DNA from: Patescibacteria group bacterium
GTDB lineage: Bacteria > Patescibacteriota > Patescibacteriia > Magasanikbacterales > GWA2-37-8
Assembly (NCBI GenBank): GCA_004321885.1
Contig: SCQK01000002.1
Coordinates: forward strand, 1-52,343
Length of the DNA: 52,343 nucleotides
Reading direction: 5' to 3'
Position 1 is the stretch's first letter. Each line of letters begins with the position of its first letter. Below are positions 8,916 through 52,177 of this stretch, in pieces. The notes beneath the pieces are model-generated. The model was given only the letters and a program-made list of their open reading frames with translations, did no database searches and was not told the origin of the DNA. Made by a program: the position numbers and the translations under genes.

Positions 8916-8917
8916 AG

Positions 8918-9005: not shown

Positions 9006-9150
9006 AATGAATTTTTTAAATTTATCTAAATGTTTTTTATTATTTGTTCCAATAAGTTCAAAGTATGTTTTTACATCCGACAATGATCCTACCTTAACAC
9101 TCCACTTATTAAACCGCTCGGACAATATTCCGTATTTATTAAAAAATGAC

Positions 9151-18010: not shown

Positions 18011-18011
18011 A

Positions 18012-30009: not shown

Positions 30010-30370
30010 AACGTTTGTTTAGATAAAAAGCTATGAAAGCCATGGGCAGAATCAGAATTGCTCCGGAAACATAATTGCTTACGCCTTTTAAGTTAAGAAA
30101 ACAAAGAAAAACAAGATTGATTAAATAGGTAAAAGCGTAAACACCAACAAACTTAAAAAGTAAATCGCGACGGTAAGAGGCGAAGACCAGCCGGCCGACG
30201 GTCTGAAAATTGAACAAAACCCCCAAAATAGTGGCCAGGAGCGCGGCCAAAGCATAATGCAGGCCGAAAAAAATCATAAGAGCAAAAACTCCATAGCCAA
30301 AAATTGTGTTTATTCCGCCGACCGCTAAAAAACGGATGAATTTATTCTCAAAAATTCGCCTCAAATTCAT
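29981..30370 (-). CDS. gtrA: GtrA-family small membrane protein (lipid-linked sugar flippase subunit)
   Basis: 129 aa with 4 TM helices and a GtrA signature (FIRFLAVGGINTIFGYGVFALM). Confidence 0.75.
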   Translation of the reverse strand: MNLRRIFENKFIRFLAVGGINTIFGYGVFALMIFFGLHYALAALLATILGVLFNFQTVGRLVFASYRRDLLFKFVGVYAFTYLINLVFLCFLNLKGVSNYVSGAILILPMAFIAFYLNKRFVYERRIEE

Positions 30371-31305
30371 ACATTAAAATTTATTCTTTCCTTTTCAATC
30401 ACCAGCGGCCGGTTTTTTACCTGGGTGTAAATGGCCGCGATATATTCCCCCAAAATGCCGACGAAAAAAAGCTGCATTGAGCCGAGAAAAAAGAACCCAA
30501 TGATAAGCGGCGCCAATCCCAACTGGAATCTCTGCCAATAAATTAACTTATAAATTAAATAGGCGAGGCCGAGCGCGAAACTTAGGGCCGATAGGACAAA
30601 GCCAATAAAGCTGGCCAACCGCAAAGGCAATTTAGAGTGATTGACAAAACCCAGCATGGCCACGCCGTACATGGTATACCAATTCCTGCCTTTTGATTTT
30701 CCTTTCTTTCTTTCATTCTGCGTGTATTTGAGCTCGGCATGCTGGAAGCCAACCTCGTTAATCATGCCGCGAAAATAAGGATCCGGATCGTCAAATTTTC
30801 TGATGGCTTCAATAAACTCCCGGTCATAAAGCCCGAAGCCGTGAAAATTTCTAATCTGTTCAATATCCGCGATTTTCTTGATTAAAAAATAATACAGCTT
30901 GCGGATATTAAACATTATGCCGCCCTCCTCGCTTTTATTTTTTATGCCGACAACGACCTTGTAGCCCTCTTCCCATTTTTTGATAAAATCCTTCATCAGG
31001 GCAGGCGGGTCCTGCAAATCGGAGACCAGCGATATAACCGCGTCACCCCTGGCCTGCAGCAAAGCGTGATGCAGGGAAGAGGCATGAAAATTGCGCGAGT
31101 TAACTATAATTTTTACATGCTTGTCTGCTTGCGCGATGCCTTTTAGTATGTTCACGGTCTCATCCGTGGAAGCGTTATCAATAAAAAGATGCTCGTAGTC
31201 GTACTGGGGCAGCTGGGCGAAAATTTCTCTAACTTGCAGATAGACATCCTTAATATTTTCTTCTTCGTTGTACGCGGGGGTGACCACGCTGATTAATTTT
31301 GCCAT
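30367..31305 (-). CDS. gtrB: GtrB/ArnC-type polyprenyl-phosphate glycosyltransferase (GT2 with C-terminal TM helices)
   Basis: 312 aa with a GT-A domain (ISVVTPAYNEEENI...DNASTDET) and two C-terminal TM helices. It lies upstream of gtrA. Confidence 0.8.
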   Translation of the reverse strand: MAKLISVVTPAYNEEENIKDVYLQVREIFAQLPQYDYEHLFIDNASTDETVNILKGIAQADKHVKIIVNSRNFHASSLHHALLQARGDAVISLVSDLQDPPALMKDFIKKWEEGYKVVVGIKNKSEEGGIMFNIRKLYYFLIKKIADIEQIRNFHGFGLYDREFIEAIRKFDDPDPYFRGMINEVGFQHAELKYTQNERKKGKSKGRNWYTMYGVAMLGFVNHSKLPLRLASFIGFVLSALSFALGLAYLIYKLIYWQRFQLGLAPLIIGFFFLGSMQLFFVGILGEYIAAIYTQVKNRPLVIEKERINFNV

Positions 31306-31313
31306 AAAATTTT

Positions 31314-32360
31314 TCAGATAAAACTTTTTATCGTCCGGTAAAAACCGTCGCGCACGCTAAACCGGCATTGATAGCCAAGCTTTTGAATTTTTGCAATTGA
31401 CAGTGTGGGTCTGACTTTATTCTTGTTTTCCAAATAGTCTTTGCCGGCCGCGCGCTTTTCGTAAATCACCTTTAATTTTTTTTCCGGCCACATCGCCACG
31501 AGCAAATTCGCCAATTCGCCTATGGATATTCGCCCGTTTTCATTGCCCACATTATAACTTTCACCCCGCTTGCCGTTTAATAGCACGTTAAAAAACCCGG
31601 CGGTAGCGTCGGCAATATAACAGAAAGTGCGCACCGGCGAGCCGTCGCTTTTAATCACTATGTCTTTATTACGAACGACATTTGAAACAAACTCGGCAAA
31701 AACCCTTTTATCATTTTCCAAGTCTATTGTGGGGCCGTAGGTGTGTTCGGGCCTGACGGCCACGGCCGGCACCTGGTACTGGTGATGCCAGCACTGGCAC
31801 ATATTTTCACCCATGCGCTTGCTTTCGCCATAACAGCTTCTGATGTCCATCTGATTCAAATACCCGCTGTCTTCTTCGCTGATGAGCGGCTTGTCCATGG
31901 TCCCGCAAACTTCCCCGCTGCTAAAAAATAAAAATCCCTTGGATTTCTTGGCTCTGGCCAATTCCAACAAATTTTTGGTGCCAAAAACATTCGGGGCTAT
32001 CACTCCAACCGGGTCAATGCCGTAAAACTGGGAACTGGCCGGACTGGCGGCGTGGATGATATAATCAATGCTTCCTTCAAAATCCAATTTTTCGGTGATG
32101 TCGTCGCATCTTATATAAAAAAACGGCGAATCCAAAAAATCGCCAAATCTCTTTTTGGCTTTTTTCAAATTTCGGCAGAGGGCAATAATTTTTAAATTCA
32201 AGCCGGGAATTTTTTCGCTTAAAAACGCCAACATGAAAACCATATAAGACGCCAGCATCCCATTCGCTCCGGTAACCAAAACCGTGGCGTTTTTAAACTT
32301 CTCCCAATCTAAACCGCTTTGGTAAATAATTTCTAAATCTTCTTTAATGATATCATTCAT
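31314..32360 (-). CDS. NAD-dependent nucleotide-sugar epimerase/dehydratase (SDR)
   Basis: 348 aa with a Rossmann fold (VLVTGANGMLASYM) and a YxxxK site (YGESK). Confidence 0.6.
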   Translation of the reverse strand: MNDIIKEDLEIIYQSGLDWEKFKNATVLVTGANGMLASYMVFMLAFLSEKIPGLNLKIIALCRNLKKAKKRFGDFLDSPFFYIRCDDITEKLDFEGSIDYIIHAASPASSQFYGIDPVGVIAPNVFGTKNLLELARAKKSKGFLFFSSGEVCGTMDKPLISEEDSGYLNQMDIRSCYGESKRMGENMCQCWHHQYQVPAVAVRPEHTYGPTIDLENDKRVFAEFVSNVVRNKDIVIKSDGSPVRTFCYIADATAGFFNVLLNGKRGESYNVGNENGRISIGELANLLVAMWPEKKLKVIYEKRAAGKDYLENKNKVRPTLSIAKIQKLGYQCRFSVRDGFYRTIKSFI

Positions 32361-32361
32361 G

Positions 32362-33522
32362 TTAATATATTTTGACTATTTCATTTTTTAGCTTCAATTC
32401 ATCTTTTATTTGGCGTGCCACCTCTTCCTGATAAGAAAAAGTTGAGATTAAAATGGGGGCGTTTTCTTTGATTTCTCGCGGAGACTTGATTTCAACCCCG
32501 TTGATTTTCTTTCCGTGATATTTGACGTTTGAATCCACGAAATACAATACCTTGGCCAGGTCCAGGCCGGCGCCCACCAGGCGCTGGGTGTGCGTGCCCA
32601 CGCCCCAAATGATTATTTTTTCGTGCTTGCCCAAAACTTCGCTCAAAAACTTGTTCACCTCGATGTCCAGTTGCGCGCATTTTGATATGTAGTCGCCGAG
32701 TTTCTTCTCGGTAATATCATCTTTGACAATTTCAGACTTAAGTTGAGGGGAAAACTTTGCTAAAACAAAAATGTCCGGGTCTATCGTCTGATTGACCGTG
32801 TTTTCATTTTTTTGCATTTCCACGATTTCAAAACCAAACTTCCCCAACAAATTTTTTAAGGACACATCGCTGAAATAATCAATATGCTCTATGCTGAACT
32901 GCTGAAACGGGGTAAAAATATACGAATCAAAACGCGTCGCGTCCGGCACCTCCACAAACAACAGACCGCCTTCGTTTAATAATGACTGAATTTTATCCAC
33001 GGAGCCGCTAAAATCCACCAGGTGCTCCAATACAGCTGACAAAATTATTACGTCAAATTTGTTCTCCGCGCTAAAATTGGAAATTGTGTCAGCGACGGCG
33101 TCAATGCCGTAGAGTTCCTTTACTGTTTTGACGCAAGTCGGCGAAGGGTCAATGCCCAAAAGATTGACGTAGCCTTTTTCCTTGAGCATATTGAGCAGAC
33201 AGCCAGTGGAGCATCCAATGTCCACTATTTTGGCGCGCTTGTCTTTGAGATGGGGAACCAAAAAATCAATAATCTTTTTAAAATATTTTTGGTAATCCTC
33301 CGAAACAACGCCATCCTTATAATTAAACTCCCACTTGGACATTATTTCATAGTATTTATTAAATTCCTCTTGTCCGGGAATATTATCAGCAAAAACAAAA
33401 CCGCATTTTTGGCACACCACAACATCATAGCCGTCCATTATGGCAATGGCTTTATTGCCGAAATTCTGTCTAAAAAATTTTTTCTTTCCCTCGGATAAAC
33501 AAATCGGACAAGGCCTAAGCAT
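32362..33522 (-). CDS. NDP-hexose C-methyltransferase-like (TcaB9/TylC3 architecture: Zn-ribbon plus SAM-MT plus C-terminal domain)
   Basis: 386 aa with an N-terminal Cys4 zinc ribbon (CPICLS...CQKCGFVF), a class I SAM motif (IVDIGCSTGCLL) and a C-terminal C-methyltransferase-like domain. Confidence 0.55.
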   Translation of the reverse strand: MLRPCPICLSEGKKKFFRQNFGNKAIAIMDGYDVVVCQKCGFVFADNIPGQEEFNKYYEIMSKWEFNYKDGVVSEDYQKYFKKIIDFLVPHLKDKRAKIVDIGCSTGCLLNMLKEKGYVNLLGIDPSPTCVKTVKELYGIDAVADTISNFSAENKFDVIILSAVLEHLVDFSGSVDKIQSLLNEGGLLFVEVPDATRFDSYIFTPFQQFSIEHIDYFSDVSLKNLLGKFGFEIVEMQKNENTVNQTIDPDIFVLAKFSPQLKSEIVKDDITEKKLGDYISKCAQLDIEVNKFLSEVLGKHEKIIIWGVGTHTQRLVGAGLDLAKVLYFVDSNVKYHGKKINGVEIKSPREIKENAPILISTFSYQEEVARQIKDELKLKNEIVKIY

Positions 33523-33524
33523 AT

Positions 33525-34544
33525 TTAAGATTGATAATGTTGTTTTAACCTTTCAGCAGCGCTGTTTAAGTTATCCTCCGGGAACAATCTGTATTTAACA
33601 ATATTGCAGTCCGCGCATGGCCCGCCCAAGATTTTGGCTCCTTCCAGCATTGTCCTTCTAAATTTTTGAAAGACAGGACCATTCCAGATTTCGGTTACTG
33701 ATTCTTTGTTGCAATCGCCCATAATGCCCGGATAATCCCAAGAATAGCAAGGAACAACCTTTCCGTCCGGATTGATTTGCATGTGAAAAAAAGGCTGGGG
33801 GCAAATTTTAACTTCCGAAACAGGCAGGCCAAACTGGGTTAGGTTCATTTCTTTGGCGCCGGGCATTTCTTCGTAATTCACACCGGCGTGGATGGGCACG
33901 GTATGCTCAACGGCTATAGAATCGCAAATGTCTCCAAAAATATCATAAAATTTTTCTTCGTCTTCTTTGTTGTCCAAAGCCGTGTCCACGATTTTGAAAT
34001 AGGCGTGCGCTTGGCCCTTGTGCTCGTAAAAATATCGTAAATTTCCCACGAATTTTTCAAAATCCAAATTAGCTTGGGAAATTTCTTGATATTTTTCCGC
34101 CGTAGTGCCCTGCAAAGAAACCACCAGCCGGTTCAACCCGGCAACGAGCAAGGCGTCGCTCATTTGCGGGGTAAGCAAAGAGGCGTTGGTTAAAATTTCA
34201 ATAACATTCGCTATCTTTTTTTCGGCCGTGTAGCGCACCATTTCCACAATGTCTTTATGCAAAAGCGGCTCGCCGATGCCGACAAAACGGATAACCTTGA
34301 TTTTGCCGGGGAATTTGGCCATGTCATCCACGCATTTTTTGTACAAACTTAAATCCATCATTATTTTATCGGAAATAAACCCGCGCTTGGAAGGCTCCAC
34401 TGAAAAAATACAATAACAACACTTAAAAACACAGGCGTAAATGGGGAAAATTTGTACAGCAAAAGGCGTGTCCAAAGGAAGCGCTTCCGAGAGTGGAGTT
34501 CTTTTGCCTCCCGGGGCTTGTCCACCTATATTTTTTGCTTTCAT
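33525..34544 (-). CDS. Radical SAM enzyme with C-terminal SPASM/twitch domain
   Basis: The CX3CX2C motif (CVFKCCYC) and a C-terminal Cys-rich auxiliary cluster region (PCYSW...GGPCADC) are present. The start is trimmed to MKAKNIGG (ATG at 34544), which overlaps the upstream gene stop as ATGA. Confidence 0.7.
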   Translation of the reverse strand: MKAKNIGGQAPGGKRTPLSEALPLDTPFAVQIFPIYACVFKCCYCIFSVEPSKRGFISDKIMMDLSLYKKCVDDMAKFPGKIKVIRFVGIGEPLLHKDIVEMVRYTAEKKIANVIEILTNASLLTPQMSDALLVAGLNRLVVSLQGTTAEKYQEISQANLDFEKFVGNLRYFYEHKGQAHAYFKIVDTALDNKEDEEKFYDIFGDICDSIAVEHTVPIHAGVNYEEMPGAKEMNLTQFGLPVSEVKICPQPFFHMQINPDGKVVPCYSWDYPGIMGDCNKESVTEIWNGPVFQKFRRTMLEGAKILGGPCADCNIVKYRLFPEDNLNSAAERLKQHYQS

Positions 34545-36211
34545 ACCAAGGGCGCTAACGCGAATTGCTCGGCGTATTTTTTCCAAAATGCCGATTGAGA
34601 AACTATGGCATTATATTTTGACCTGTATTCATCGTACTTATCCGCCTGGTTCATCATTTTATAACATTTGGCCGCGAAATAATAAGCAAAGGCATGGTCG
34701 TCTCTCGCTTGAATCGTGTTGGCAAAACCCTTCAGGGCCGTGGCATAATTGCCCAGCCGGAATTCCGTGTTGAGCGCGAAATTAAGTTCCAGATTCATGG
34801 TATAGGCTTTTTCCTGAATATATTCCGGGGTAAAATCATCGGTCCCGATAACCGCTCTCTTAAAATCACAGCTCATGTAATCCCCCTTGATAAAATTTTT
34901 CTGCAGGCACGTATCCAGCATTTCACTGCCCACCAGGGGCGTGGCCATGCTGATTCTAAACCAGGAGGCGTTAAGCGTTTTCAAAAAAGCCAGGGCATCT
35001 TCAATATCCTGTTTGGTTTCCCCGGGCAAACCGATGAGTATGGACACGTCCGAAGCAATGCCCAGCGCGCGACAATCGCGCAGAACCCGCGACACTATGG
35101 AGAGATTAAGCGGCTTGTGCATAATCTCGCGCAGGACCCGTTCACTGCCCGATTCCACTGACAGTATCAAATTATCCATGCCGGTGCTTTTTAGCGCTTC
35201 CAGCATTTTATAATCCAGCGCGTACAAGGCCAAAGAAGACGGGAAAAAAGACGTAAGCTTCAACTCGTTTAAGATATTCACGATTTCAAAAGCCCTGTGC
35301 CTGTTCACCAGCAAATGGTCGTCAAAAAACACCGCGGTCTGGGCGCCGTACTCGTCCCGCAGGCGCATCAAGTCCTCGCGCACTCTTTTCAAACTGTGAA
35401 AGCGCACGACCCGGCCGTGCACGGTGTGCGAAGCGCAAAAACAGCATTTATGCGGGCATCCCCGCGACGTCATTATGGGCATGCCTTTTTTTTGCCGTTC
35501 TTTTTCCAGGGGAAACAGGCCCAACAGCGAATGCTCGCGGTAATCATCCGCGTTGAGAATGCTGAAATCATAAAATGGAATTTCATCCAAATCTTCAATA
35601 AAATCAAACTGGAACATCTGGTTGTTTTCGGCTTTTTCCCTCGTAATCCAGCTAAGATGATTGCGCAGTAATGCTTTTTTATCCCCGGCTTTGACCAGCG
35701 CGAGCAGGGGTTTTTCCGCCTCGCCATAGCAAATCGCGTCAAAGCAGTCGCTGGCCTTAAACATTTCCCGGTACATATTGGTTGGCACCCCGCCGCCGGC
35801 CATGAGCATAGACGCGGGGAAAATTTTGCGCGCCGTTGCCGCCAAATCCAGCATATTGTAATAGGCCGGGGCAAACAGCGCGGATATGCCAACCATGGTG
35901 GGAGCGAAATCTTTCCACTCTGGCGCGGAAAGAGTTTCAAAAAATAATTCGGCAAAAGAATTATAATTAAAACTTTCTATTTTATTCAAAACCACGTTAA
36001 AATCCAGCAGCCTGACTTCCACCGGCGCGTTTTTTTTCAAATAAGCGCTCAGCGAAATAAGCCCGATAGGCATTTCGGTAAGCACGCTACCGTAGTTTCC
36101 CGTCCTTTTTTGCACGACGCGCTCATTAAAAGCGGGCCGAACAAAACTTTCAAACTTAATGTAAGGCGGGACGATAAATAAAATTCGTTCCATAGTAATA
36201 GACTTATTCAT
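34541..36211 (-). CDS. Cobalamin-binding (class B) radical SAM enzyme
   Basis: It has an N-terminal B12-binding Rossmann-like domain and a radical SAM core (SRGCPHKCCFCAS). The start could be MNKS (36211), MERIL (36193), or the annotated 36262. Length is about 555-573 aa. Confidence 0.7.
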   Translation of the reverse strand: MNKSITMERILFIVPPYIKFESFVRPAFNERVVQKRTGNYGSVLTEMPIGLISLSAYLKKNAPVEVRLLDFNVVLNKIESFNYNSFAELFFETLSAPEWKDFAPTMVGISALFAPAYYNMLDLAATARKIFPASMLMAGGGVPTNMYREMFKASDCFDAICYGEAEKPLLALVKAGDKKALLRNHLSWITREKAENNQMFQFDFIEDLDEIPFYDFSILNADDYREHSLLGLFPLEKERQKKGMPIMTSRGCPHKCCFCASHTVHGRVVRFHSLKRVREDLMRLRDEYGAQTAVFFDDHLLVNRHRAFEIVNILNELKLTSFFPSSLALYALDYKMLEALKSTGMDNLILSVESGSERVLREIMHKPLNLSIVSRVLRDCRALGIASDVSILIGLPGETKQDIEDALAFLKTLNASWFRISMATPLVGSEMLDTCLQKNFIKGDYMSCDFKRAVIGTDDFTPEYIQEKAYTMNLELNFALNTEFRLGNYATALKGFANTIQARDDHAFAYYFAAKCYKMMNQADKYDEYRSKYNAIVSQSAFWKKYAEQFALAPLV

Positions 36212-37304
36212 TCTCAAACAATCGCGGGTCTTCGTGAAACGGCTTCCGTGTTTTGTCTTCATCCGTAAAAACCTCGGCGCACGGCACCGGCAATGGCTTG
36301 CCGTAAACGCGCGGCTCCAGATATTTTTTCATGAATGCGCGGTCTTCGGCAATGGTGCAGGTGTCCACGTACTCGCCGAAATACTTGATGTCAAACCCGC
36401 GCTTAATAATGTCTTTCAGCGGCTCTTGCAAAACATTGCCGATGGACACGTGAATGTAGGGGCAGGGCAAAACATCGCCGTATTGGGTGACGGAAAACAT
36501 GCCTTTCAAAGCAATACAGCCCATATTCAAGCCATAGGCCGGGGTCAAATGCGTGAAGACCTTGTATTTTTTTTCCAGCTCGCGCATATAGGCCATGTCT
36601 TTTTTATCCACCAGGCCGTCATATTTTCTTTCCCAGTTGCCCACGGGCTTGGCATAGCTGACAAATACGCCAATGCCCTTATCAGTAAAGTATTCCAAAA
36701 ATTTTATGAACTCATCGGAATACAAACGGTCTTTCCAAACAACGGTCTGCATAAAAACATCCAGCCCGGCGGTCTTGGCATTATCCACCGCTTTCAGCAC
36801 GCGCTCGTATGCGCCGGGCGCGTGCCGAAACTCATCATGGCTTTTGGCGTCAAAGCTGTCCAGGCTGATTTGCATGCGGTCCACGCCAATGCTTTTGAGA
36901 TGCTTGGCGCGCTCTGCGGTCAGCAGAAAGCCGTTGCTGTCGCAGTTGATGTAAAATTTTTGCGGGTCAATGGCCGCCACCAGGGCGTCAAAATCCTTGA
37001 AAACGAGCGGCTCGCCGCCAGTGATGGTTACCCGCGCCAAACCCAGCTCGTCGGCCTGCCGAAAGAGCTCGCGCACGTCCGCGATGGTCATCTCGCGGGC
37101 GCCGTCGCTGCGGCTCTGAAATCTTTTGATGGAGCAATGCTCGCACTTGAAATTGCAGGTGTAATTGTATTGAAATTGAATAATGGCAATGCTTTCGCCG
37201 CGCCTAATTTTTTCGTCAAATTTCAAAATTTTTTCGTAGACGAGCGGCTTATTTTCTTTCAGATAATTGCGCTTGCCCTGTTCACGCTGGGAAAGTTGCT
37301 CCAT
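36204..37304 (-). CDS. Radical SAM enzyme with SPASM domain
   Basis: 366 aa with CX3CX2C (CNFKCEHC) and C-terminal auxiliary-cluster cysteines (CPYIH...C...C). Confidence 0.7.
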   Translation of the reverse strand: MEQLSQREQGKRNYLKENKPLVYEKILKFDEKIRRGESIAIIQFQYNYTCNFKCEHCSIKRFQSRSDGAREMTIADVRELFRQADELGLARVTITGGEPLVFKDFDALVAAIDPQKFYINCDSNGFLLTAERAKHLKSIGVDRMQISLDSFDAKSHDEFRHAPGAYERVLKAVDNAKTAGLDVFMQTVVWKDRLYSDEFIKFLEYFTDKGIGVFVSYAKPVGNWERKYDGLVDKKDMAYMRELEKKYKVFTHLTPAYGLNMGCIALKGMFSVTQYGDVLPCPYIHVSIGNVLQEPLKDIIKRGFDIKYFGEYVDTCTIAEDRAFMKKYLEPRVYGKPLPVPCAEVFTDEDKTRKPFHEDPRLFENE

Positions 37305-37312
37305 AATCGTAA

Positions 37313-37375
37313 TGAGTGAACAAAATTGTTTTGAATATCAAAACAATTTTTGAACGAATTAGATTATATGCCTAA
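37313..37375. promoter_or_regulatory. Two perfect hairpins in the ddhB-rSAM intergenic spacer (13-bp stem AAAATTGTTTTGA/TCAAAACAATTTT and TATATGCCT-AA-AGGCATATA)
   Basis: Seen directly in the sequence. The first hairpin lies about 20 nt upstream of the rSAM start codon on the minus-strand mRNA. Confidence 0.4.
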
Positions 37376-38350
37376 AGGCATATATTTTTTATTGTTAATT
37401 TTGTTTTGATACCAGGCAAATGTTTCTTTGATTCCTTCCGCAAACGGGTAGCGCGATTGCCAACCCAACACCTTGGCCGCTTTTTCAAAATTAAGGCTCT
37501 GCTCGGGAATTTCATTTTTTTGATTGTTCAAAATTTCGTGTTTAATTTTTACGCCGATAATGTCGGAAATTTTGGCCACCAAATCCAAAACCGAAAAATT
37601 CTGGCCCGAGCTGAAGTTAAACGCCTCGCCCCTGGCCGCGGCAATGTTTTCGGCCAGGCAAAGATAGCCGTCCACCACGTCTGGCGCGTACACATAATCC
37701 CTCTTAAAATGCCCGTCGCTGCGGATTTGTAAAACTGAATTTTCCAGCGCGGCTTTCATTATCCCCGGGATAATGCGGTTGAAATTCAAATCACCGGGCC
37801 CGTAGATATTGCCGAACCGGCTCACAGTGGCCGGCAGGCCGTAGGTTTTGGCGTATGTTTGCGCGAGCAAATCAGCGCAGGATTTGGACGCGTCATAAGG
37901 ATGATCGCCGGCCAGGGCCTGATTTTCCTCGGCCAAAAGGCAGTGCTTGCCATAGGCCTTGTCGCTGGAAGCCACTATCACGGCGCGGGTAGAGGGCGAT
38001 AAACGCGCGGCTTCCAAGATATTGACCGTGCCCATGATATTTGTATCCAATGTTTCGTAAGGATTAACATAGGCCGTGGGCACGATGGGCTGGGCCGCCA
38101 CGTGAAAAATATAATTTATTTCATGCTTGGAAATTAAATCAAACATCCTTTCCTTGTCTTTCAAGTCTCCGTACGAGCAAACCACCTGCTCATCCAATTT
38201 TTCCGAATAAAACAAAGACAACGGATCGCGGCTGCGGCACAAACAAACGATTTTAGCGGGCTTTAATGCCAACAGCCGGCTCACCAGATGCGCACCGACC
38301 AGTCCGGCGCCGCCGGTAACAAAAATATTTTGTCCGGTTAAATGCGACAT
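37364..38350 (-). CDS. ddhB: CDP-glucose 4,6-dehydratase-like SDR
   Basis: 328 aa with a Rossmann fold (IFVTGGAGLVGAHL) and a YxxxK site (YDASK). It lies immediately downstream of the cytidylyltransferase. Confidence 0.65.
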   Translation of the reverse strand: MSHLTGQNIFVTGGAGLVGAHLVSRLLALKPAKIVCLCRSRDPLSLFYSEKLDEQVVCSYGDLKDKERMFDLISKHEINYIFHVAAQPIVPTAYVNPYETLDTNIMGTVNILEAARLSPSTRAVIVASSDKAYGKHCLLAEENQALAGDHPYDASKSCADLLAQTYAKTYGLPATVSRFGNIYGPGDLNFNRIIPGIMKAALENSVLQIRSDGHFKRDYVYAPDVVDGYLCLAENIAAARGEAFNFSSGQNFSVLDLVAKISDIIGVKIKHEILNNQKNEIPEQSLNFEKAAKVLGWQSRYPFAEGIKETFAWYQNKINNKKYMPLGI

Positions 38351-39162
38351 AGAGGATTTGTTTTTGTTTCATGCCAAACTTTCCAAAACGGGTCTTTGTG
38401 CCACAGCTCGTTCATGTCCTCCACTTCCTTATACGTATCCATGCATTTCCACTTGCCCTGATGCGCGTAAATAGAAAGCTGACCTGCCCTGGCCAGGGGA
38501 GCAAAGATTGATTCAATCATGCTATTTTCAGTCAACAAGTCAAAGATGTCTTTCTTGAATATCATAAAGCCGCCGTTGACATAATCAGAATCGCCCGACC
38601 GCACTTCATTGTAATCAGTCACCTTGTGCTGAAAAAAACCGCGCAATTTTTTGGTCTGATGGTCTATGTCCAGCATGCCAAAGCGCGAAGTGAGCTTGAT
38701 GCCGGTAATGGTGCCCAAAGTATTCTGATTTTTATGAAAATTGAGCAAATCCTGGATATTGATGTCTCCTACCCCGTCGCCATAGGTTACCATAAATTCT
38801 TCATCGCCGTCCAGATATGGCCGCAGGCGGCGCACGCGCTCGCCGGTCAGGCTCTCGGGGCCGGTTTCGGCGAAGGTTATTTTGAAATGGTCGCAATCAT
38901 TGTTGTGAAAGGTGACTTCGTGATTGTGAGTGTCCAGCGTAAAATCATTCGCCAGACTGCGCCAATTCAAAAAATACTGCTTGATCATATCGCCCTTGTA
39001 GCCCAGCGCCAGAATAAATTCATTGAAGCCGTAATGGGCGTATATTTTCATGATATGCCACAATATCGGCTTGCCGCCCACCAAAACCAGCGGCTTTGGC
39101 TTAAATTCCGTTTCCTCCTTCATGCGCGTGCCTATGCCGCCGCATAAAATAATGGTTTTCAT
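38338..39162 (-). CDS. ddhA: Glucose-1-phosphate cytidylyltransferase
   Basis: 274 aa with N-terminal MKTIILCGGIGTRMKEETEFKPKPLVLVGGKPILWHIMKIYAHYG, closely matching RfbF/DdhA. Confidence 0.85.
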   Translation of the reverse strand: MKTIILCGGIGTRMKEETEFKPKPLVLVGGKPILWHIMKIYAHYGFNEFILALGYKGDMIKQYFLNWRSLANDFTLDTHNHEVTFHNNDCDHFKITFAETGPESLTGERVRRLRPYLDGDEEFMVTYGDGVGDINIQDLLNFHKNQNTLGTITGIKLTSRFGMLDIDHQTKKLRGFFQHKVTDYNEVRSGDSDYVNGGFMIFKKDIFDLLTENSMIESIFAPLARAGQLSIYAHQGKWKCMDTYKEVEDMNELWHKDPFWKVWHETKTNPLCRI

Positions 39163-45197: not shown

Positions 45198-45653
45198 TCA
45201 TCCCATCACCCTCTGCCAAAATCCCCTGTGCCCGTCAATAATATTCTTGGGCATGGTTTTGAAAAATCTGCCTTTTTTCGGCTTCATAATAGTCCGGCAC
45301 TCAAACACCAGCGACACTGTGTGCCCGCGCGAACCCTGGCTGCAATCATTGGCAAACAAAAATTTGGAATCGCTGACATTAATCCCCAGCTCTTTCCAGG
45401 CCACGGCCTGGATGCGTTCGTCAAAGCTCTCGCGAAAGCGCAGAAGACCGCCCGGGAAATGCCAGCCGCGCCACCACTGGTCGTCGCGCCAGGTGAGCAA
45501 CACGCCCCGCGGACTCTTTATCACCAGCTCTACGGCCGCAAAAGTTACTACGCCGAGCAGAGCTTCAAAAACCGGCTGTGGCAGGCCCTCGTGAGGGTTG
45601 TCTATTTTTTTCAGCAGGACGCAAAGCTGTTTTAATTCTTTCGCGTTTAACAT
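45198..45653 (-). CDS. Nudix hydrolase, GDP-mannose mannosyl hydrolase (Gmm)-like, second copy
   Basis: 151 aa with motifs VLLTWRD and GWHFPGGLLRFRESFDERIQAVAWKELG, paralogous to 14423..14875. Confidence 0.6.
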   Translation of the reverse strand: MLNAKELKQLCVLLKKIDNPHEGLPQPVFEALLGVVTFAAVELVIKSPRGVLLTWRDDQWWRGWHFPGGLLRFRESFDERIQAVAWKELGINVSDSKFLFANDCSQGSRGHTVSLVFECRTIMKPKKGRFFKTMPKNIIDGHRGFWQRVMG

Positions 45654-46817: not shown

Positions 46818-48542
46818 CTAAGCAGAAGATGAATTTACATATGGTATTTCCGCGTACAGGCCGGCGGACCATTTCTCGGGCATTTTTTGATCGGGATCAA
46901 TCATCAGCTCGCAGACAATCGGCCCGTCAAAATCCATAACTTTTTTTACCTTGTCCAACTCGCTGTCATTGTTAATCCGCTCAAAGGCAATGCCCCAGGC
47001 CGGAATTAGTTTGCTGAAATCCGGAATGCTCACTCCTGTCTCTGGGTCTGAAGCAAAAATCTTTTTAAAGAAATGCGTGTGCGTGGCCCGGATGGAATAA
47101 TAGCCATTGTTGTTGACAATAAAAATTTTAAGCGGCAGTTTGTGATGAACCACGGTTTGCAATTCCTGTAAATTCATCATTATGGAACCGTCGCCTTCAC
47201 TGCAGATGACGGCCTGGCGGCCACGCGCGATGCTGGCGCCAATGGCCATGGGCAGGCCCGAACCCATATGACCCAAACCGGCGTTGGTGAGAAACCGCTG
47301 GCCGCGGGAAACTTTAAGCGCCTGGTGAGGGGTAAGCGAAGCCATGCCATTGGCCGTGGTGATATCCAAACCTGGATTCCGGCTCCCGGGCCGGAATGAC
47401 ATGTTGCATGCGCCTATCTCGCGCCAAAATTTGTAGACATTCAAATATTTCGGGTCGCAGGCCAAATCAGCGGGATTGAGCGGCTCCACTTTCACGTCCC
47501 AGCGATTGAGGGTGATGTCTTGTTTGTATAATTCATCTAAAAATACTTTGGCATCGCAATGCACAGCCAAATCCACGGATAATTGTTTACGTTTCATTTC
47601 ATTGTCATCAATATCAACCATTATTTTTTTTGCGTTCGGCGCGAATTTATTGTAGTCCCATGAAACTTGCGTGAGTTGCATACGCTCGCCCACGATAAGC
47701 AGAAGGTCGCAGTTGTCTGCCGCGTAATTGGCGGCTTTGTTACCCGGCATTCCCTGCCTGCCCAAATAATAGGGATAGTCGTAAGTGACTAAATCATCAG
47801 CCGTAAAAATTGGCGTAACCGCGTTGATTTTAAATTTATCCAAAGACTTCCACAAAATTTCTTCGCCCCCGGCCAGACGTATGCCATTGCCGGCGATGAG
47901 CAGGGGGCGTTTGGCTTCGCGTAAAAGTGTGACGATTTTTTCCATTGTCGCGCGCTCCAGCGAACCTGGATTCCAGCTCTCGGGCTGGAATGATAAAAGT
48001 GTGTCCGGGTCAATTTCCGCGGCCTGCACGTCCAAAGGAATTTCCACAAACACCGGGCCGGGCCGGCCGTGGGTAGCTAAATACAGGGCTTTTTCCAGAT
48101 GATAGCGAATTTCATTTTCATTTTCCACGGTTACGGCGTACTTGCAAACCGGCTTGGCAATATCAATGACGTTTAATTCCTGAAAGCCGATGGCGCGCAC
48201 TACTGGTTGTCCGTTGGCATCGCGAGGCGTGATGTCCGCTCGCTTCACTTGTCCGGCAACAACAAACATCGGGATACTGTCCAGCCAGGCCCCGGCCATG
48301 CCGGTTACCGCGTTGGTGCCGCCCGGGCCCGTGGTTACCAGAGCGACCCCCGGAGAATTTTTTATCCTGCCATAGCCCTCGGCCGCGATGGCCACTGCCT
48401 GCTCGTGATGACAACAGTAAGATTTGAGGTTTGACCGGCCCAGTGAATCCACCAGGTGCATAATGCCGCCGCCCGAAACCAAAAAGACCGAGTCAGCCAC
48501 TTTTTGTTCAATAAATTGCCAGACGTAGTCGGATAGTTTCAT
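46818..48542 (-). CDS. Thiamine-diphosphate-dependent enzyme of the acetolactate-synthase/YerE family
   Basis: 574 aa with three ThDP-enzyme domains: an N-terminal Pyr domain (VFLVSGGGIMHL...GPGGTNAVTGMAGAW), a central domain, and a C-terminal PP domain with GDGS...NN ThDP-binding motif (GDGSIMMNLQEL...NNNGY). Confidence 0.75.
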   Translation of the reverse strand: MKLSDYVWQFIEQKVADSVFLVSGGGIMHLVDSLGRSNLKSYCCHHEQAVAIAAEGYGRIKNSPGVALVTTGPGGTNAVTGMAGAWLDSIPMFVVAGQVKRADITPRDANGQPVVRAIGFQELNVIDIAKPVCKYAVTVENENEIRYHLEKALYLATHGRPGPVFVEIPLDVQAAEIDPDTLLSFQPESWNPGSLERATMEKIVTLLREAKRPLLIAGNGIRLAGGEEILWKSLDKFKINAVTPIFTADDLVTYDYPYYLGRQGMPGNKAANYAADNCDLLLIVGERMQLTQVSWDYNKFAPNAKKIMVDIDDNEMKRKQLSVDLAVHCDAKVFLDELYKQDITLNRWDVKVEPLNPADLACDPKYLNVYKFWREIGACNMSFRPGSRNPGLDITTANGMASLTPHQALKVSRGQRFLTNAGLGHMGSGLPMAIGASIARGRQAVICSEGDGSIMMNLQELQTVVHHKLPLKIFIVNNNGYYSIRATHTHFFKKIFASDPETGVSIPDFSKLIPAWGIAFERINNDSELDKVKKVMDFDGPIVCELMIDPDQKMPEKWSAGLYAEIPYVNSSSA

Positions 48543-48545: not shown

Positions 48546-49460
48546 CTAGAAAATAAGAAATTCAATCGCTTTATATACGCGGTCAACTGGTGATAACTCG
48601 GCATCCAACAATATATACGGCGGCTGATCCGGATTTTGTTTTTGGCCGGCAAACTCGTCAGAATTGGTAAAGCTGTAGGGGAAGCTCAACAGGCCTTCAT
48701 CATTGCCGAGCGGCATATCCCCAAAAGTGGCCACTTCATCTTCTTTAAAACCCAGTATCTTCAGCACGGTTTTAATGGCCACGGTCTTGCTGTCTTCATG
48801 CAGTTTTTTTGTCATGTGCACATAGGTATCATCGCCGGCGGCCGCGGTGAGCTCATTGCCCAATTCGGCGTTAAGCTCAGCCACCAGCTGGGCATGAATT
48901 GTTTTGTCTTTGGGCAAAACAAAAGTTACCTTGGCCTGCTCGGTGAAAAATTCCCCGTCAGCCGGGCGGCAGACGTCAATCATTTCAGCCGGCACATAGC
49001 CCTCCCAGCTATCCAACAAAAATTTTCTAAATGTCTCAATGCCTTTCTCGGCCAAGTCAGCGCGAGTGATGCCCAGATTGGCGTAGACTTTTTTCCCGAT
49101 TTCCACCGCTTTCAAAATTTGCGGCATTTCCAGGCCGTGATTATATATCTCAATCAACTGGTCTTTTTTTACCTCGTACAATGTGGTGCTATTGCCCCCG
49201 GCCACAAAGCTGGGCACAGACACATTTTCTTTATTCAACAGCTCCTGCAAGGGCGGCACCAACACCTTGATGGCTGTGGCCGCGCGCGCGGAAATAAAAG
49301 CCACTGATTTGTTTTTCTTTAAAATTTTATCCACCAACTCAAAAACCTGGGGCTGTTTGTGCGTGGCATCGCCGAGCGTGCCATCGTAATCCAAGCCGAA
49401 CAATTTGATTTTTGTTTTTGCTTCCTCTAATTTGACCTGCGCGATTTCGGAGTGATTCAT
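48546..49460 (-). CDS. HAD-superfamily phosphatase (HAD-IIB, sugar-phosphate phosphatase-like)
   Basis: 304 aa with motif I DYDGTL and motif IV GDMPLGNDEG. Confidence 0.65.
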   Translation of the reverse strand: MNHSEIAQVKLEEAKTKIKLFGLDYDGTLGDATHKQPQVFELVDKILKKNKSVAFISARAATAIKVLVPPLQELLNKENVSVPSFVAGGNSTTLYEVKKDQLIEIYNHGLEMPQILKAVEIGKKVYANLGITRADLAEKGIETFRKFLLDSWEGYVPAEMIDVCRPADGEFFTEQAKVTFVLPKDKTIHAQLVAELNAELGNELTAAAGDDTYVHMTKKLHEDSKTVAIKTVLKILGFKEDEVATFGDMPLGNDEGLLSFPYSFTNSDEFAGQKQNPDQPPYILLDAELSPVDRVYKAIEFLIF

Positions 49461-49464
49461 AACT

Positions 49465-49585
49465 TTAGCTCAAGTAAGCGCCGTCTGGATGTGCTCGCAG
49501 CGGCTTGTGGCGCCCAGAGCGCCACGCCCGAGCCCTCGCGGGCGAGGAAAGCGAGAGCACATCAAGACGGCGCGAACGAGAAAAT
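49465..49585. ncRNA. GC-rich, highly structured intergenic element with nested inverted repeats (GCGCCGTCTGGATGTGCTCGC ... GCGAGAGCACATCAAGACGGCGC). It is a candidate structured RNA or REP-like element
   Basis: A long imperfect inverted repeat encloses two inner hairpins (TGGCGC-CCAGA-GCGCCA and GCCCTCGCGGGC). Its GC content is far above the flanking sequence, and no coding potential is apparent. Confidence 0.35.
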
Positions 49586-51144
49586 TAAAGTACCCAATAA
49601 GTTAAAATTGTTTTACGATTTTTGTTTTGCGCGATGCTTTCGTCGGCGTAGTAAGAATCATCCTTATAGTGAGTGGTGGAAATTTCTTCAAACACGCAGC
49701 CGTTTTTGGTGGAAAACCCGTGCGCTAAATCGCGCTCTATCGTCACAATATCGCCGGGCCCGCTTTCTTTGATGACGCCGTTTAGGTCAAAAATCGCGTC
49801 GCCCCACAAGATATGAAAGGTCTCTTCTTTTAATTTATGCGAGTGCACCGGGTGTTTTTGGCCGGGCAGAAGTACAATCAATTTTTTGCAATATTCGCGG
49901 TTGAAACAATTTATCAGGCTGGCGCCGTATTCGTAGAATTTTTCTATGCCATAATGATGCGACAGCTCAAATTCCCACTTGTTTGATACCGGGATATTGG
50001 CGTTTTTGAGCAGCTGGTTGATTTGGGAAATGGCGGTATAAACCTGCTCGCGCAATTCCAGACAATTTACGTCCGCGGCCATGATGGGCTCGTTTTTCTT
50101 GAAGTCGCGGCTGGCCGTAAACACCGTGTATTTGGACAGGTCGTTGGCCAAAACCTGCCCGGCCATGTTGGGAAACGCGAAAAAAGAATTTTTGATGTCC
50201 ACGCGCTCGCCCGGCCTGATATCGCCGGCCGCGAACACTCCGCGCTGAAACTGGCGGATGTCGGCCAGCTCCTGGGGCGCGAAATCATGGCGCCTCCCGG
50301 AAACGCCGCAAGCGCGAAACGCCTCGGCCGCGGCTTCCAGCCATTTTTGTACCTGGTCTGGCGTGGCTGAATAGCCGTTTACGGAATACTTTTCGCTTTT
50401 AGCCGAGACATGCTTTTCAAAAGTGCCGGCGCCTTTGGCCACGGCCAGCTTTACCGCGTCAAAATTGTCGGCGTGTTCGTGGGTGGAAAAACCAATGGTT
50501 ATTTCCGGGTACCGCTCGCGCAACAAAGTAATCTGATTGAATTGCAGCTGCTCGTGGGGGGTGGGATACTGCCCGATGCAGTGCTCCAGCGCGAATTTTT
50601 TATTGCGGTTGATGAAAAAACTCACCACGCGGTCAATTTTTTCCAAAGCCGCGCCGCCGGTGGAGGCGATAATCGGCTTATCGGTTTTGGCAATGGCCTC
50701 CAAAAGCGTCCAGTCGGTAAAAGAACAGCTGGCGACTTTAATAATATCATAGCCGTGGCGCGCCACATTTTCCACGGACTTTTCGTCAAAAGGCGTGCAC
50801 ATGGAAATGAAGCCCAGCTTGTCGGCCTCGCTCTTTAATATCAAAAATTCCTCGCCCGTCAACCGCGCCTCGGAAAATCTTTTGATATATTTCAAATCCA
50901 TCCGCTCTTTATAATCCGGATGGATAAAAGTGTCCAGGTCGCGATACTGGAACTTGAACGCGAACCGGAAACCCAAATCCGGAGCAATAAAATTTTTACA
51001 GACCTCGCCAATCTCCCTGATTATTTTCAAGCCAAACTCCACATCGCCCATGTGGTTGTTGGCCAGCTCAAAAATAAAAAGAGGCGCCGCCGTTCCTCCT
51101 CTTTGCGCGAAAATCGCGTCAATTTTTTCCGCCATAATATACAT
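49585..51144 (-). CDS. NeuB-family nonulosonate (sialic-acid-like) synthase fused to a C-terminal cupin domain
   Basis: 519 aa. Residues 1-350 carry a NeuB/SpsE PEP-condensing TIM barrel plus SAF domain. Residues 400-519 form a cupin fold (HSHKLKEETFHILWGDAIFDLNG...). The start overlaps the fcl stop as TAATG. Confidence 0.65.
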   Translation of the reverse strand: MYIMAEKIDAIFAQRGGTAAPLFIFELANNHMGDVEFGLKIIREIGEVCKNFIAPDLGFRFAFKFQYRDLDTFIHPDYKERMDLKYIKRFSEARLTGEEFLILKSEADKLGFISMCTPFDEKSVENVARHGYDIIKVASCSFTDWTLLEAIAKTDKPIIASTGGAALEKIDRVVSFFINRNKKFALEHCIGQYPTPHEQLQFNQITLLRERYPEITIGFSTHEHADNFDAVKLAVAKGAGTFEKHVSAKSEKYSVNGYSATPDQVQKWLEAAAEAFRACGVSGRRHDFAPQELADIRQFQRGVFAAGDIRPGERVDIKNSFFAFPNMAGQVLANDLSKYTVFTASRDFKKNEPIMAADVNCLELREQVYTAISQINQLLKNANIPVSNKWEFELSHHYGIEKFYEYGASLINCFNREYCKKLIVLLPGQKHPVHSHKLKEETFHILWGDAIFDLNGVIKESGPGDIVTIERDLAHGFSTKNGCVFEEISTTHYKDDSYYADESIAQNKNRKTILTYWVL

Positions 51145-52103
51145 TATTTTAAGTTACAATTTGATTGATACCAATCATAGGTCGTTTTGAGTCCTTGGTC
51201 AAGCTCTATTTTGTGCCGCCAGCCCAGGGCCCGGATGCGGGAAATATCCAGTGTCCTCCGGAAAACGCCGTCCGGCTTGGCCGGGTCCCATTCAATTTTT
51301 CCCTCATAGCCCGTAATTTTTTGAATCAGCTCGGCCAAATCCTTTATCGTGATATCCTGGCCCATGCCCAGATTCGCGAAAATTTCTCCCCGCTCGTTCT
51401 GTTCTTTGGTCGGATTAAAATGCTCCATTAAAAATATACAGCCGTCGGCCATATCGTCCGCGTGCAAAAATTCCCGCCAGGGCGCGCCCGTGCCCCAGAG
51501 CGTCACTTTTTTTTCTCCACTTGTTTTGGCCTCGTGAAATTTGCGCAGCAGGGCCGGAATCACGTGCGAATTTTGCAAATCAAAATTATCGCCGGGCCCG
51601 TACAAGTTGGCCGGCATCACCGCGATAAAATTAGCGCCGTATTGGCGGTTATAACTCTGGCACATTTTCAGCCCGGCAATTTTGGCGACAGCGTAAGGTT
51701 CGTTGGTCGGCTCCAGCGGCCCGGACAGCAGATATTCCTCTTTTATCGGCAACTGGCAAACCTTTGGGTAGATGCAGGCCGAACCCAAAAACAAAAGCTT
51801 CCTTACATTATATATATAGGAAGCGTGAATGACGTTGTTTTGTATGGCCAGATTATTATAAATAAAATCAGCCGGATAGGTGTTGTTGGCGCCGATGCCG
51901 CCCACCTTGGCCGCGGCCAAAAAAACGTATTCCGGTTTTTCAGCCGCAAAAAAATCATTGACCGCTTTTTGCTCGCGCAAATCCAATTCTTGATGGGTTT
52001 TTAACAAAAAATTGCCAAAGCCCTCGGCCCGCAAACGGCTAACCAAAGCCGAACCCACCAATCCGCGGTGTCCGGCAACATAAACTTTGGCATTTTTTTC
52101 CAT
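51144..52103 (-). CDS. fcl: GDP-L-fucose synthase (GDP-4-keto-6-deoxy-D-mannose 3,5-epimerase/4-reductase)
   Basis: Start trimmed to MEKNAKVYVAGHRGLVGSALVSRL (ATG at 52103), because the longer ORF runs through tRNA-Ala. Fcl-specific motifs include FLGSACIYPK. Confidence 0.85.
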   Translation of the reverse strand: MEKNAKVYVAGHRGLVGSALVSRLRAEGFGNFLLKTHQELDLREQKAVNDFFAAEKPEYVFLAAAKVGGIGANNTYPADFIYNNLAIQNNVIHASYIYNVRKLLFLGSACIYPKVCQLPIKEEYLLSGPLEPTNEPYAVAKIAGLKMCQSYNRQYGANFIAVMPANLYGPGDNFDLQNSHVIPALLRKFHEAKTSGEKKVTLWGTGAPWREFLHADDMADGCIFLMEHFNPTKEQNERGEIFANLGMGQDITIKDLAELIQKITGYEGKIEWDPAKPDGVFRRTLDISRIRALGWRHKIELDQGLKTTYDWYQSNCNLK

Positions 52104-52104
52104 G

Positions 52105-52177
52105 TGGACCTCAGGGGGATCGAACCCCTTACCTCTTCCGTGCCACGGAAGCGCTCTACCAAATGAGCTAGAGGCCC
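52105..52177 (-). tRNA. tRNA-Ala (anticodon GGC)
   Basis: Manual fold: acceptor GGGCCTC/GAGGTCC with a G3:U70 pair, D arm GCTC-ATTTGGTA-GAGC, anticodon stem CTTCC/GGAAG with loop GTGGCAC, T arm AGGGG-TTCGATC-CCCCT, and discriminator A. The G3:U70 pair is the alanine identity element. Confidence 0.8.

Follow-up and report, generated by a model that had tools for sequence, protein, structure and literature searches.

How is a gene to be read that encodes a sialic acid synthase-like enzyme joined to a sugar isomerase? The question is raised by contig SCQK01000002.1 (assembly GCA_004321885.1) of a Patescibacteria group bacterium, analysed over 52,343 nucleotides and referred to here, at this full length, as the window, in which such a gene, a NeuB-cupin fusion, lies on the minus strand near the right end. 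A first-pass annotation, made from the sequence alone, interpreted the fusion and the adjoining haloacid dehalogenase (HAD) phosphatase as a possible phosphorylated nonulosonate route, resembling the synthesis of 2-keto-3-deoxynononic acid 9-phosphate (KDN-9-P) or N-acetylneuraminic acid 9-phosphate (Neu5Ac-9-P). It did not consider the thiamine diphosphate (ThDP)-dependent carboligase encoded directly downstream of the HAD protein; this carboligase accompanies the fusion more regularly than any other neighbour does. The interpretation that we favour, with somewhat more confidence than doubt, is that the fusion supplies a long keto-acid donor for ThDP-dependent sugar branching, in a variant of the acyl-branched 3,6-dideoxyhexose pathway; it is drawn from gene context and homology. 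The genes and domains on which it turns are the following.

49585..51144, minus strand: NeuB-cupin fusion gene, 519 aa (open reading frame, ORF, and domain matches)
50305-51087, minus strand: NeuB-type TIM barrel of the fusion, residues ~20-280
50065-50262, minus strand: SAF-like beta domain of the fusion, residues ~295-360
49588-50064, minus strand: D-lyxose-isomerase-type cupin of the fusion, residues 361-519
48546..49460, minus strand: Cof-type HAD-IIB phosphatase, 304 aa (Hydrolase_3, E 4e-8, and HAD-IIB), with DYDGTL at residues 24-29
46818..48542, minus strand: YerE-like ThDP-dependent carboligase, 574 aa (TPP_enzyme N, M and C domains)

The protein encoded by the fusion gene matches, in Pfam, NeuB over residues 63-280 (E 1.5e-39) and Cupin_2 over residues 423-478 (E 1.7e-6; 28.1 bits, cut-off 27.2). 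It is, as had been noted in the first-pass annotation, about 170 aa longer than stand-alone members of the NeuB/SpsE family, the NeuB, PseI and 3g8r chains being of 349-350 aa. Since both NeuB and Cupin_2 are present in all 120 of the best matches among 5.8 billion proteins, nearly all of them of about 500-535 aa, the fusion is not a chance read-through. A look-up of the exact window protein returned no record. In the best 80 loci, the alignment to the fusion always runs through the cupin, to about residue 493-519. Relatives are encoded in at least 593 GTDB species, and the carriers include Nitrospirota, Omnitrophota, groups of the candidate phyla radiation (CPR), Nanoarchaeia, Methanoperedens, Butyrivibrio NC2002, Janthinobacterium lividum, Mycobacterium szulgai, M. 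angelicum, M. canettii, some M. marinum and Mycolicibacterium rhodesiae. One relative of 863 aa, encoded on a 963-kb CPR contig (P0007), is a triple fusion in which an extended short-chain dehydrogenase/reductase (SDR) precedes NeuB and cupin. Over the SDR domain it shares 30% identity (E 2e-29) with the SDR encoded at 31314..32360 of the window, a Rosetta-stone link that hints that the window SDR may work together with the fusion. The Fcl-like SDR encoded next to the fusion was also tried as the counterpart of the SDR of P0007 and was rejected, being only 22% identical.

The N-terminal part of the fusion belongs, by homology, to the NeuB superfamily (PF03102), yet it is the orthologue of no characterised nonulosonate synthase. 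The best structural match of residues 19-360 is 3g8r (E 1e-105), a structural-genomics entry entitled “probable spore coat polysaccharide biosynthesis protein E”, the function of which is not established (PDB title). The true NeuB, PseI and SpsE structures match with E-values of 1e-16 to 1e-25, the nonulosonic acid synthases NeuB, PseI and LegI with E-values of 1e-18 to 1e-25 and 22-28% identity, and the NCBIfam equivalog scores are 124 bits for PseI (TIGR03586, cut-off 340) and 120 bits for NeuB (TIGR03569, cut-off 400). The TIM barrel is recognised both by hidden Markov models (HMMs) and by structure. The SAF/AFP-like domain is beta-rich in the model, at residues ~295-360, and can be aligned with 3g8r and, over 324 aa, with PseI; several fusion homologues have a recorded Pfam SAF (PF08666) domain. 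Residues T110, K129, S132, S154, S213, H215, E234 and H236 of Neisseria meningitidis NeuB (NmNeuB) correspond to T117, K136, S139, S161, S220, H222, E243 and H245 of the fusion, and all eight are invariant or nearly so in 27 homologues. In NmNeuB, we take the His pair to bind the metal and the Lys, Ser and Thr residues to bind phosphoenolpyruvate (PEP). As these residues are kept, it is a reasonable inference that the domain is a PEP-condensing enzyme. The residue R314 of the NmNeuB SAF domain, which presumably contacts the N-acetyl group, is aligned by phmmer, in a region of low identity, with a Phe of the fusion.

The C-terminal part was described in the first-pass annotation as a cupin of the sugar-isomerase fold, and the analysis bears this out. 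Besides the Cupin_2 match, the Pfam family Lyx_isomer (PF07385, cut-off 20.8 bits) is matched weakly by the window protein (17.9 bits for the whole fusion, 21.6 bits for the isolated cupin) and by all 19 of the fusion homologues searched, with a best E-value of 1.1e-7. A profile of the C-terminal 159 residues matches the D-lyxose isomerases 2y0o (E 2.9e-13) and 7nzo (E 1.1e-10) across the entire domain, and the fold is that of D-lyxose/D-mannose isomerases, including the N-terminal helix ahead of the barrel. The motifs H434-x-H436, K439-E-E441-T-F, H475 and E487 are fully or almost fully conserved, and align with PEHRH, GKQETF, KHWF and E-x-S of 2y0o and 7nzo. Among 1.84 billion representative proteins, 331 carry this cupin domain at E <= 1e-10, and in most of the full-length cases it occupies positions ~340-510 of a protein of ~500 aa. 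These data support the prediction of a sugar-isomerase-type (D-lyxose/D-mannose isomerase) cupin, and also the view that the domain resembles enzymes acting on free sugars, not hexose-6-phosphate isomerases. The earlier suggestion that a fused isomerase supplies hexose-6-phosphate is thus retained as to the type of enzyme and given up as to the phosphorylated substrate, the relatives being active on free sugars.

If the fusion makes a keto acid, then the question is which enzyme uses it, and here the gene neighbourhood is informative. ORFs were called in 78 non-redundant loci and clustered into families, the recurrence of which was counted. The 28 commonest neighbour families were examined, so that no family present in 6 or more of the 78 loci was passed over. 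The commonest partner of the fusion is the acetolactate-synthase-like ThDP enzyme, present in 70 of the 78 loci and in 36 of the 39 that have at least 8 kb on both sides. Its gene shares the strand of the fusion and follows it at a median distance of 592 bp, and in 23 loci starts within +-16 bp of the fusion stop; where the two do not abut, mostly only a small phosphatase gene intervenes. The same gene order is found in Magasanikbacteria, a Pacearchaeota archaeon, Janthinobacterium and mycobacteria, so that the linkage holds across phyla and both domains, though the islands otherwise vary. The window ThDP enzyme scores below every acetohydroxyacid synthase (AHAS) equivalog cut-off of NCBIfam, and in the PDB search 8rph (E 1.3e-102) and 5ahk (E 1.8e-67), the latter of which we take to be Pseudomonas protegens YerE, rank above genuine AHAS. 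The CDG ThDP motif of 8rph fits the description of JanthE, a YerE-like enzyme (PMC12247030). JanthE was tried as the direct neighbour of the J. lividum fusion and rejected, the neighbour having an SDG motif and a different sequence.

The second recurrent set of neighbours is that of CDP-sugar synthesis and tailoring. RfbH homologues occur in 55 of the 78 loci, at a median of 20 bp upstream of the fusion and on the same strand. Other recurrent families are a 386-aa S-adenosylmethionine (SAM) methyltransferase (MT386; 48 loci), RfbF (43), a radical-SAM family (rSAM366; 32), a B12-radical-SAM family (24), an ArnC-like family 2 glycosyltransferase (GT2; 23) and GtrA (9). The domain scan of the window covered ORFs of at least 150 aa not inside a longer ORF; in the window, the corresponding genes all lie within 27.4-39.2 kb, the RfbH gene standing among GT87, GtrA-like and GT2 genes (27413..31305). 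The tailoring block extends over 31314..37304, and its assignments come from Pfam and NCBIfam.

28699..30009, minus strand: RfbH (E1), CDP-6-deoxy-4-keto-glucose 3-dehydrase (NF011936, 690 bits, cut-off 423)
37364..38350, minus strand: CDP-glucose 4,6-dehydratase-like SDR (TIGR02622, 194.8 bits, its best NCBIfam match, below the cut-off of 278)
38338..39162, minus strand: RfbF, glucose-1-phosphate cytidylyltransferase (TIGR02623, 265 bits, its best match, below the cut-off of 300)
31314-32360, minus strand: extended SDR (tailoring block)
32362-33522, minus strand: SAM methyltransferase (tailoring block)
33525-34586 and 36204-37304, minus strand: two radical-SAM/SPASM genes (tailoring block)
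34541-36262, minus strand: B12-radical-SAM (tailoring block)
27413-28702, minus strand: GT87 (GT-C), likely export/attachment
29981-30370, minus strand: GtrA-like, likely export/attachment
30367-31305, minus strand: ArnC/PgfS-like GT2, likely export/attachment

Taken together, the ThDP carboligase, the RfbH gene and the probable RfbF and RfbG-type dehydratase genes of the window point to an acyl-branched 3,6-dideoxyhexose pathway.

The HAD protein with the DYDGTL motif, the presence of which downstream of the fusion was confirmed by the Hydrolase_3 and HAD-IIB matches, is the third element of this gene group. Across the window protein and 29 homologues, D24-x-D26-G-T28, T57, K225 and G247-D248...N253-D254, which constitute HAD motifs I-IV, are all invariant, and an alpha/beta cap is present between motifs II and III. 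The AlphaFold2 (AF2) model has a pLDDT of 94. Foldseek matches it, with probability 1.0 and TM-scores of only 0.5-0.7, to YidA, SupH, BT (Bacteroides) phosphatases and PfHAD1, the last in a structure with mannose-6-phosphate, and also to a phosphomannomutase (PMM)-like mutase. The possibility that the protein groups with trehalose-6-phosphate or sucrose-6-phosphate phosphatases had been raised in the first-pass annotation; in the Foldseek comparison it stands out as neither. The KDN-9-P phosphatase is of the KdsC type, a cap-less HAD class which differs from the Cof-type IIB class. The family of the window HAD is small, with only 107 members among 5.8 billion proteins, all at least 39% identical. 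For at least 27 of them, the longest contig is equal in length to that of one of the best fusion matches. In two of these homologues (44% and 64% identical) the gene sits exactly between the NeuB-cupin and ThDP genes, and the Magasanikbacteria copy is likewise placed between them. Because the family is so small and the members looked up lie in this position, the HAD protein can be regarded as a real pathway partner; as judged by gene context, its partnership with the fusion is a dedicated one, seen in CPR bacteria and in archaea of the small-celled (DPANN) type.

In 37 other loci (between L005 and L083), the same slot of about 600 bp (e.g., L044:11407-12012) holds an unrelated protein of ~201 aa with invariant W-D-x-D-D-x-L (WDVDDVLN...), T, K and DD motifs. 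No match to this family was found in Pfam or NCBIfam, and the PDB profile matches are weak (3cnh, E 0.015; 3bwv, E 0.25). It is probably an undescribed family of small HAD-like phosphatases, an assignment to the HAD superfamily for which the DxDD, T, K and DD motifs and these weak profile matches are the basis. In 10 further loci an HAD_2 protein is encoded near the fusion. As three unrelated HAD types accompany the fusion in different lineages, it can be argued that dephosphorylation belongs to the pathway.

The fusion and HAD genes of the window are separated by a 124-nt spacer (49461-49584, minus strand, from the fusion stop to the HAD start), which folds back on itself as a long, almost perfectly paired hairpin with arms at 49479-49498 and 49553-49572 (dG -65.4 kcal/mol; z -5.5 relative to shuffled sequences). 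The hairpin is unique in the window and has no match in Rfam. In the homologous loci L001 and L086 the spacer is merely 2-30 bp, so it looks lineage-specific; it has the appearance of an insertion, either similar to a repetitive extragenic palindrome or miniature inverted-repeat transposable element (REP/MITE-like) or acting in RNA stability or processing.

What could these enzymes make together? The domain identities, the conserved catalytic residues and the gene linkage with its statistics are observations; from them we infer which substrates are used, whether phosphatase or isomerase acts first, that an ulosonate is passed on to the ThDP enzyme, and what is made. In the proposed pathway, the HAD phosphatase would free a ketose from a ketose phosphate, e.g., pentulose-5-phosphate or fructose-6-phosphate, and the D-lyxose-isomerase-type cupin would turn the ketose into the matching aldose. 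The NeuB-type domain would then join the aldose and PEP to a 3-deoxy-2-ulosonic acid, of eight carbons (C8) from a pentose or of nine (C9, KDN) from a hexose. Next, the YerE-like ThDP enzyme would decarboxylate the ulosonic acid to an acyl-anion equivalent of seven or eight carbons (C7 or C8) and attach this at C4 of CDP-4-keto-3,6-dideoxy-D-glucose, the acceptor which RfbF, the 4,6-dehydratase and RfbH would provide. The branch would be tailored by SDR reductases, methyltransferases and radical-SAM enzymes, and the ArnC-like GT2, GtrA and the GT-C enzyme would pass the sugar, via a polyprenyl-phosphate carrier, to a surface glycan. Since the product of a NeuB-type enzyme is a 3-deoxy-2-keto acid, the ligated branch would have a 1'-oxygen, a 2'-deoxy position and polyhydroxy carbons beyond. 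Caryophyllose shows this pattern, and so does the M. gastri sugar in its C7 branch.

The proposal follows a scheme that is already known in outline. For the acyl-branched 3,6-dideoxyhexoses yersiniose, erwiniose, caryophyllose and “gastriose”, Steitz et al. (2022) put forward a common route and demonstrated part of it; in this route an aldolase-made functionalised 2-keto acid undergoes decarboxylation and ligation to CDP-4-keto-3,6-dideoxy-D-glucose by a YerE-like enzyme, followed by a branch reductase (PMC9306805). The enzymes are YerE/YerF for yersiniose, ErwE/F/I/J for erwiniose, MMAR_2331/2332 for caryophyllose and MyGE/MygI/MygF for “gastriose” (PMC9306805). ErwE refuses pyruvate and prefers longer hydroxylated donors, and MyGE takes C3-C8 donors (PMC9306805). 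The branches of erwiniose, caryophyllose and gastriose carry a 2'-deoxy position (PMC9306805), which is what is expected from C3 of a 3-deoxy-ulosonate. No aldolase is among the 28 commonest neighbour families of the 78 loci. The other elements of the scheme appear to be present, RfbF and the dehydratase as best matches below cut-off, and the fusion is the gene most tightly linked to the ThDP enzyme. It is proposed to take the role of the pyruvate aldolase, and for this reason the pathway is called a variant.

Several points weigh against this proposal. To our knowledge, no NeuB-type enzyme has so far been shown to feed a ThDP carboligase. Literature searches, which did not extend to the gene lists of Krug et al. 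(2024, Angew. Chem. 63:e202403535), who reportedly mined gene clusters around YerE-like enzymes, found no papers in which YerE or lyxose isomerase is connected with NeuB or sialic acid synthase; searches on NeuB with cupin, or on 6-dideoxy-4-C sugars, likewise found nothing joining the two systems. The window RfbH, RfbF and dehydratase genes do not adjoin the fusion but lie 10-20 kb from it, and neither an E3 (RfbI/AscD) reductase nor a YerF-type reductase was identified in the window. In a few loci (L016, L081), the ThDP gene is ~9 kb from the fusion. An HAD gene is found in only 49 of the 78 loci (24 of the 39 that extend 8 kb or more to each side), about 40% have no phosphatase, and the phosphatase step is not universal. 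In addition, MyGE was inactive towards ketone acceptors in vitro. The known long-branch systems use pyruvate aldolases (PMC9306805).

The first-pass annotation leads to the most obvious alternative, in which synthase and phosphatase make a KDN- or Kdo-like acid (Kdo, 3-deoxy-D-manno-octulosonic acid) via a phosphorylated intermediate, and the acid is CMP-activated and built into a glycan. This would account for the retention of the NeuB-family catalytic residues, for the adjoining HAD phosphatase dedicated to this context and for the setting in a glycan island. However, the activating enzymes are missing where they were sought: in agreement with the first-pass annotation, which saw no neuA- or neuC-like genes, the scan of window ORFs of 150 aa or more, those inside a longer ORF excepted, detected neither CTP_transf_3 (NeuA/KdsB) nor Epimerase_2 (NeuC), and neither a CMP-sugar synthetase nor NeuC is among the 28 commonest neighbour families. 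The protein also remains, at about 120 bits, far under the NeuB and PseI equivalog cut-offs of 340-400 bits; the window HAD is of the Cof-type IIB class, and its counterparts in other lineages are of the 201-aa HAD-like family or HAD_2; the isomerase fold matches free-sugar isomerases; and the near-universal ThDP enzyme, often encoded by an overlapping gene, is left unexplained. It is therefore quite improbable that the system is of this kind. The logic of synthase and phosphatase, with an isomerase, put forward in the first-pass annotation was largely right, and its KDN-9-P-like nonulosonate end point was probably wrong.

Could the two enzymes instead be independent, the ThDP enzyme using pyruvate or another small keto acid for a yersiniose-like C2-C4 branch and the fusion making a separate sugar acid for the same glycan? 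YerE itself takes pyruvate (PMC9306805), both genes lie in large mixed glycan islands, and they are ~9 kb apart in L016 and L081, but the linkage is far tighter than that of any other pair, with overlap of start and stop in 23 loci or the phosphatase gene alone between them, and it persists across phyla and both domains despite the variability of the islands. An activation enzyme for a free ulosonic acid is also absent from the window ORFs and neighbour families examined, and we give this explanation a small chance. That the ThDP enzyme acts as a plain decarboxylase on the ulosonate, yielding a 2-deoxy higher aldose (chain extension by a net two carbons) that is then activated and used, we hold to be very improbable. 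Members of this ThDP enzyme superfamily are able to decarboxylate 2-keto acids with no ligation step; the nearest solved relatives, however, are YerE-type carboligases, the co-occurring RfbH, RfbF and dehydratase supply exactly the ketone acceptor of YerE-type enzymes, and the recurrent neighbours of the fusion include no kinase or nucleotidyltransferase that would serve such an aldose. The remaining debatable issue is the cupin, which might epimerise or isomerise the ulosonate or the CDP-sugar, or be a regulatory sugar-binding domain. Cupins are functionally diverse and the Lyx_isomer score of the window protein is borderline; beside this stand the Lyx_isomer matches of all homologues searched and the motifs shared with D-lyxose isomerases, and we assign such a role little probability.

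Apart from the genes of the proposed pathway, the surroundings of the fusion contain other genes, two of which directly flank the group or recur near it.

51144..52103, minus strand: GDP-L-fucose synthase-like SDR (fcl) (NF047922, 473.9 bits, cut-off 500)
45198..45653, minus strand: NUDIX-like protein, 151 aa (PF00293, E 1e-4)

The stop of fcl overlaps the first ATG of the fusion by 1 nt. Because the called start of the Fcl ORF (52181) overlaps tRNA-Ala(ggc) at 52104..52177, the real start is placed near 52103. Homologues of this NUDIX protein, encoded downstream of the ThDP gene, recur in some 23-33 loci (33 of 83 fetched loci by tblastn), are 67-75% identical in Magasanikbacteria and hold the same position in L086. 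A role as a sugar-releasing enzyme similar to GDP-mannose mannosyl-hydrolase was considered; the PDB matches are only to generic NUDIX proteins, and the Nudix box is degenerate (“AV” for “RE”, “KE” for “EE”). A second NUDIX paralogue is encoded at 14423-14875, and a 216-aa ORF without a family match (44345-44995) adjoins the NUDIX gene that lies near the fusion. Between the ThDP and NUDIX genes lies a gene for a RhaT-like sugar/proton symporter of the DMT superfamily (45691-46734; NF010022, 146 bits, below cut-off), which the other loci of the 78 do not have; in a CPR bacterium of reduced metabolism, it could serve for the uptake of a free sugar precursor. In locus L085 (695-3340), genes for a ROK sugar kinase, a 6-phosphogluconate-dehydrogenase-like protein and a PF01182 protein (lactonase/GlcN6P-isomerase family) stand upstream of NeuB-cupin, HAD and ThDP, separated from the fusion by one unannotated 281-aa ORF, a hint that they may form a dedicated pentose-phosphate precursor supply.

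The glycan gene island of the window, of ~43 kb (9.3-52.1 kb), is flanked by two tRNA-Ser genes (8917-9238) and by tRNA-Ala (52104-52177), its G+C content falls to 41-45% over most of 22-34 kb, and it could have been acquired horizontally. It also encodes a 724-aa fusion of an Acyl_transf_3 membrane acyltransferase and an SDR epimerase/dehydratase domain (14844-17018), and at 17015-20015 two large ORFs (331 aa and 667 aa) with no Pfam match at E <= 1e-4.

The consequences of the proposed pathway would reach beyond this locus. We regard as evenly balanced the broader claim that a NeuB synthase was recruited outside sialic-acid-type chemistry to make a C8/C9 ulosonate solely for ThDP grafting, and that the resulting 13-14-carbon branched sugars are widespread surface components in hundreds of lineages of bacteria and archaea, most of them uncultivated (CPR bacteria, small-celled DPANN-type archaea, Nitrospirota, Omnitrophota and some mycobacteria). 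If the proposed pathway is correct, then hundreds of genes labelled “N-acetylneuraminate synthase family protein”, “spore coat protein” or “sialic acid synthase SpsE” are misread as evidence of sialic-acid-like glycans, and a PEP-driven, isomerase-coupled route joins the known aldolase route to long-branched sugars. It would also predict 13-14-carbon branched surface sugars in CPR bacteria, small-celled archaea and some mycobacteria; cultured carriers of the fusion exist. Biocatalysis would gain a matched pair, consisting of a maker of chiral polyhydroxy keto acids and a ThDP carboligase that uses them; such keto-acid donors are sought in the field of YerE enzymes (PMC9306805, PMC12247030).

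It is finally worth comparing the fusion system with those already characterised. With NeuB, PseI, LegI and KDN-9-P synthase the fusion shares the TIM barrel and SAF domain, the metal-binding His pair and the Lys and Ser residues for PEP, but its loci differ from those systems in having no NeuA, NeuC, PseG or LegG partners and a phosphatase of another class; 3g8r, of 350 aa, has no cupin. The D-lyxose/D-mannose isomerases (B. subtilis YdaE, 2y0o; Thermofilum, 7nzo; E. coli O157, 3kmh) contain, after H-x-H, a 6-residue loop that is absent from the cupin of the fusion, which moreover is the C-terminal part of a synthase. The Kdo pathway (KdsD, KdsA and KdsC) shares the same logic of three activities, namely isomerase, PEP-dependent condensation and HAD phosphatase. 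However, all three proteins of the fusion system are from other families, KdsD being an SIS-domain protein, KdsA similar to 3-deoxy-D-arabino-heptulosonate 7-phosphate (DAHP) synthase and KdsC a cap-less HAD; KdsB is lacking, and the order of the steps is probably different. The closest parallel is with the acyl-branched pathways, in which, as in the fusion loci, a YerE-like ThDP enzyme is paired with an enzyme that forms, or in the fusion loci would form, a keto acid, in the company of RfbF, 4,6-dehydratase and RfbH genes (the first two only probable in the window), SDR reductases and methyltransferases, and the branch, in the fusion system a predicted one, is 2'-deoxy. In those pathways the keto acid comes from a pyruvate aldolase (BphI-like ErwI, or MMAR_2331 of the aldolase/citrate-lyase family; PMC9306805), whereas in the fusion loci it would come from a PEP-dependent NeuB-type synthase fused to a sugar isomerase, often accompanied by a phosphatase. 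These loci are spread much more widely, including CPR bacteria and small-celled (DPANN-type) archaea.

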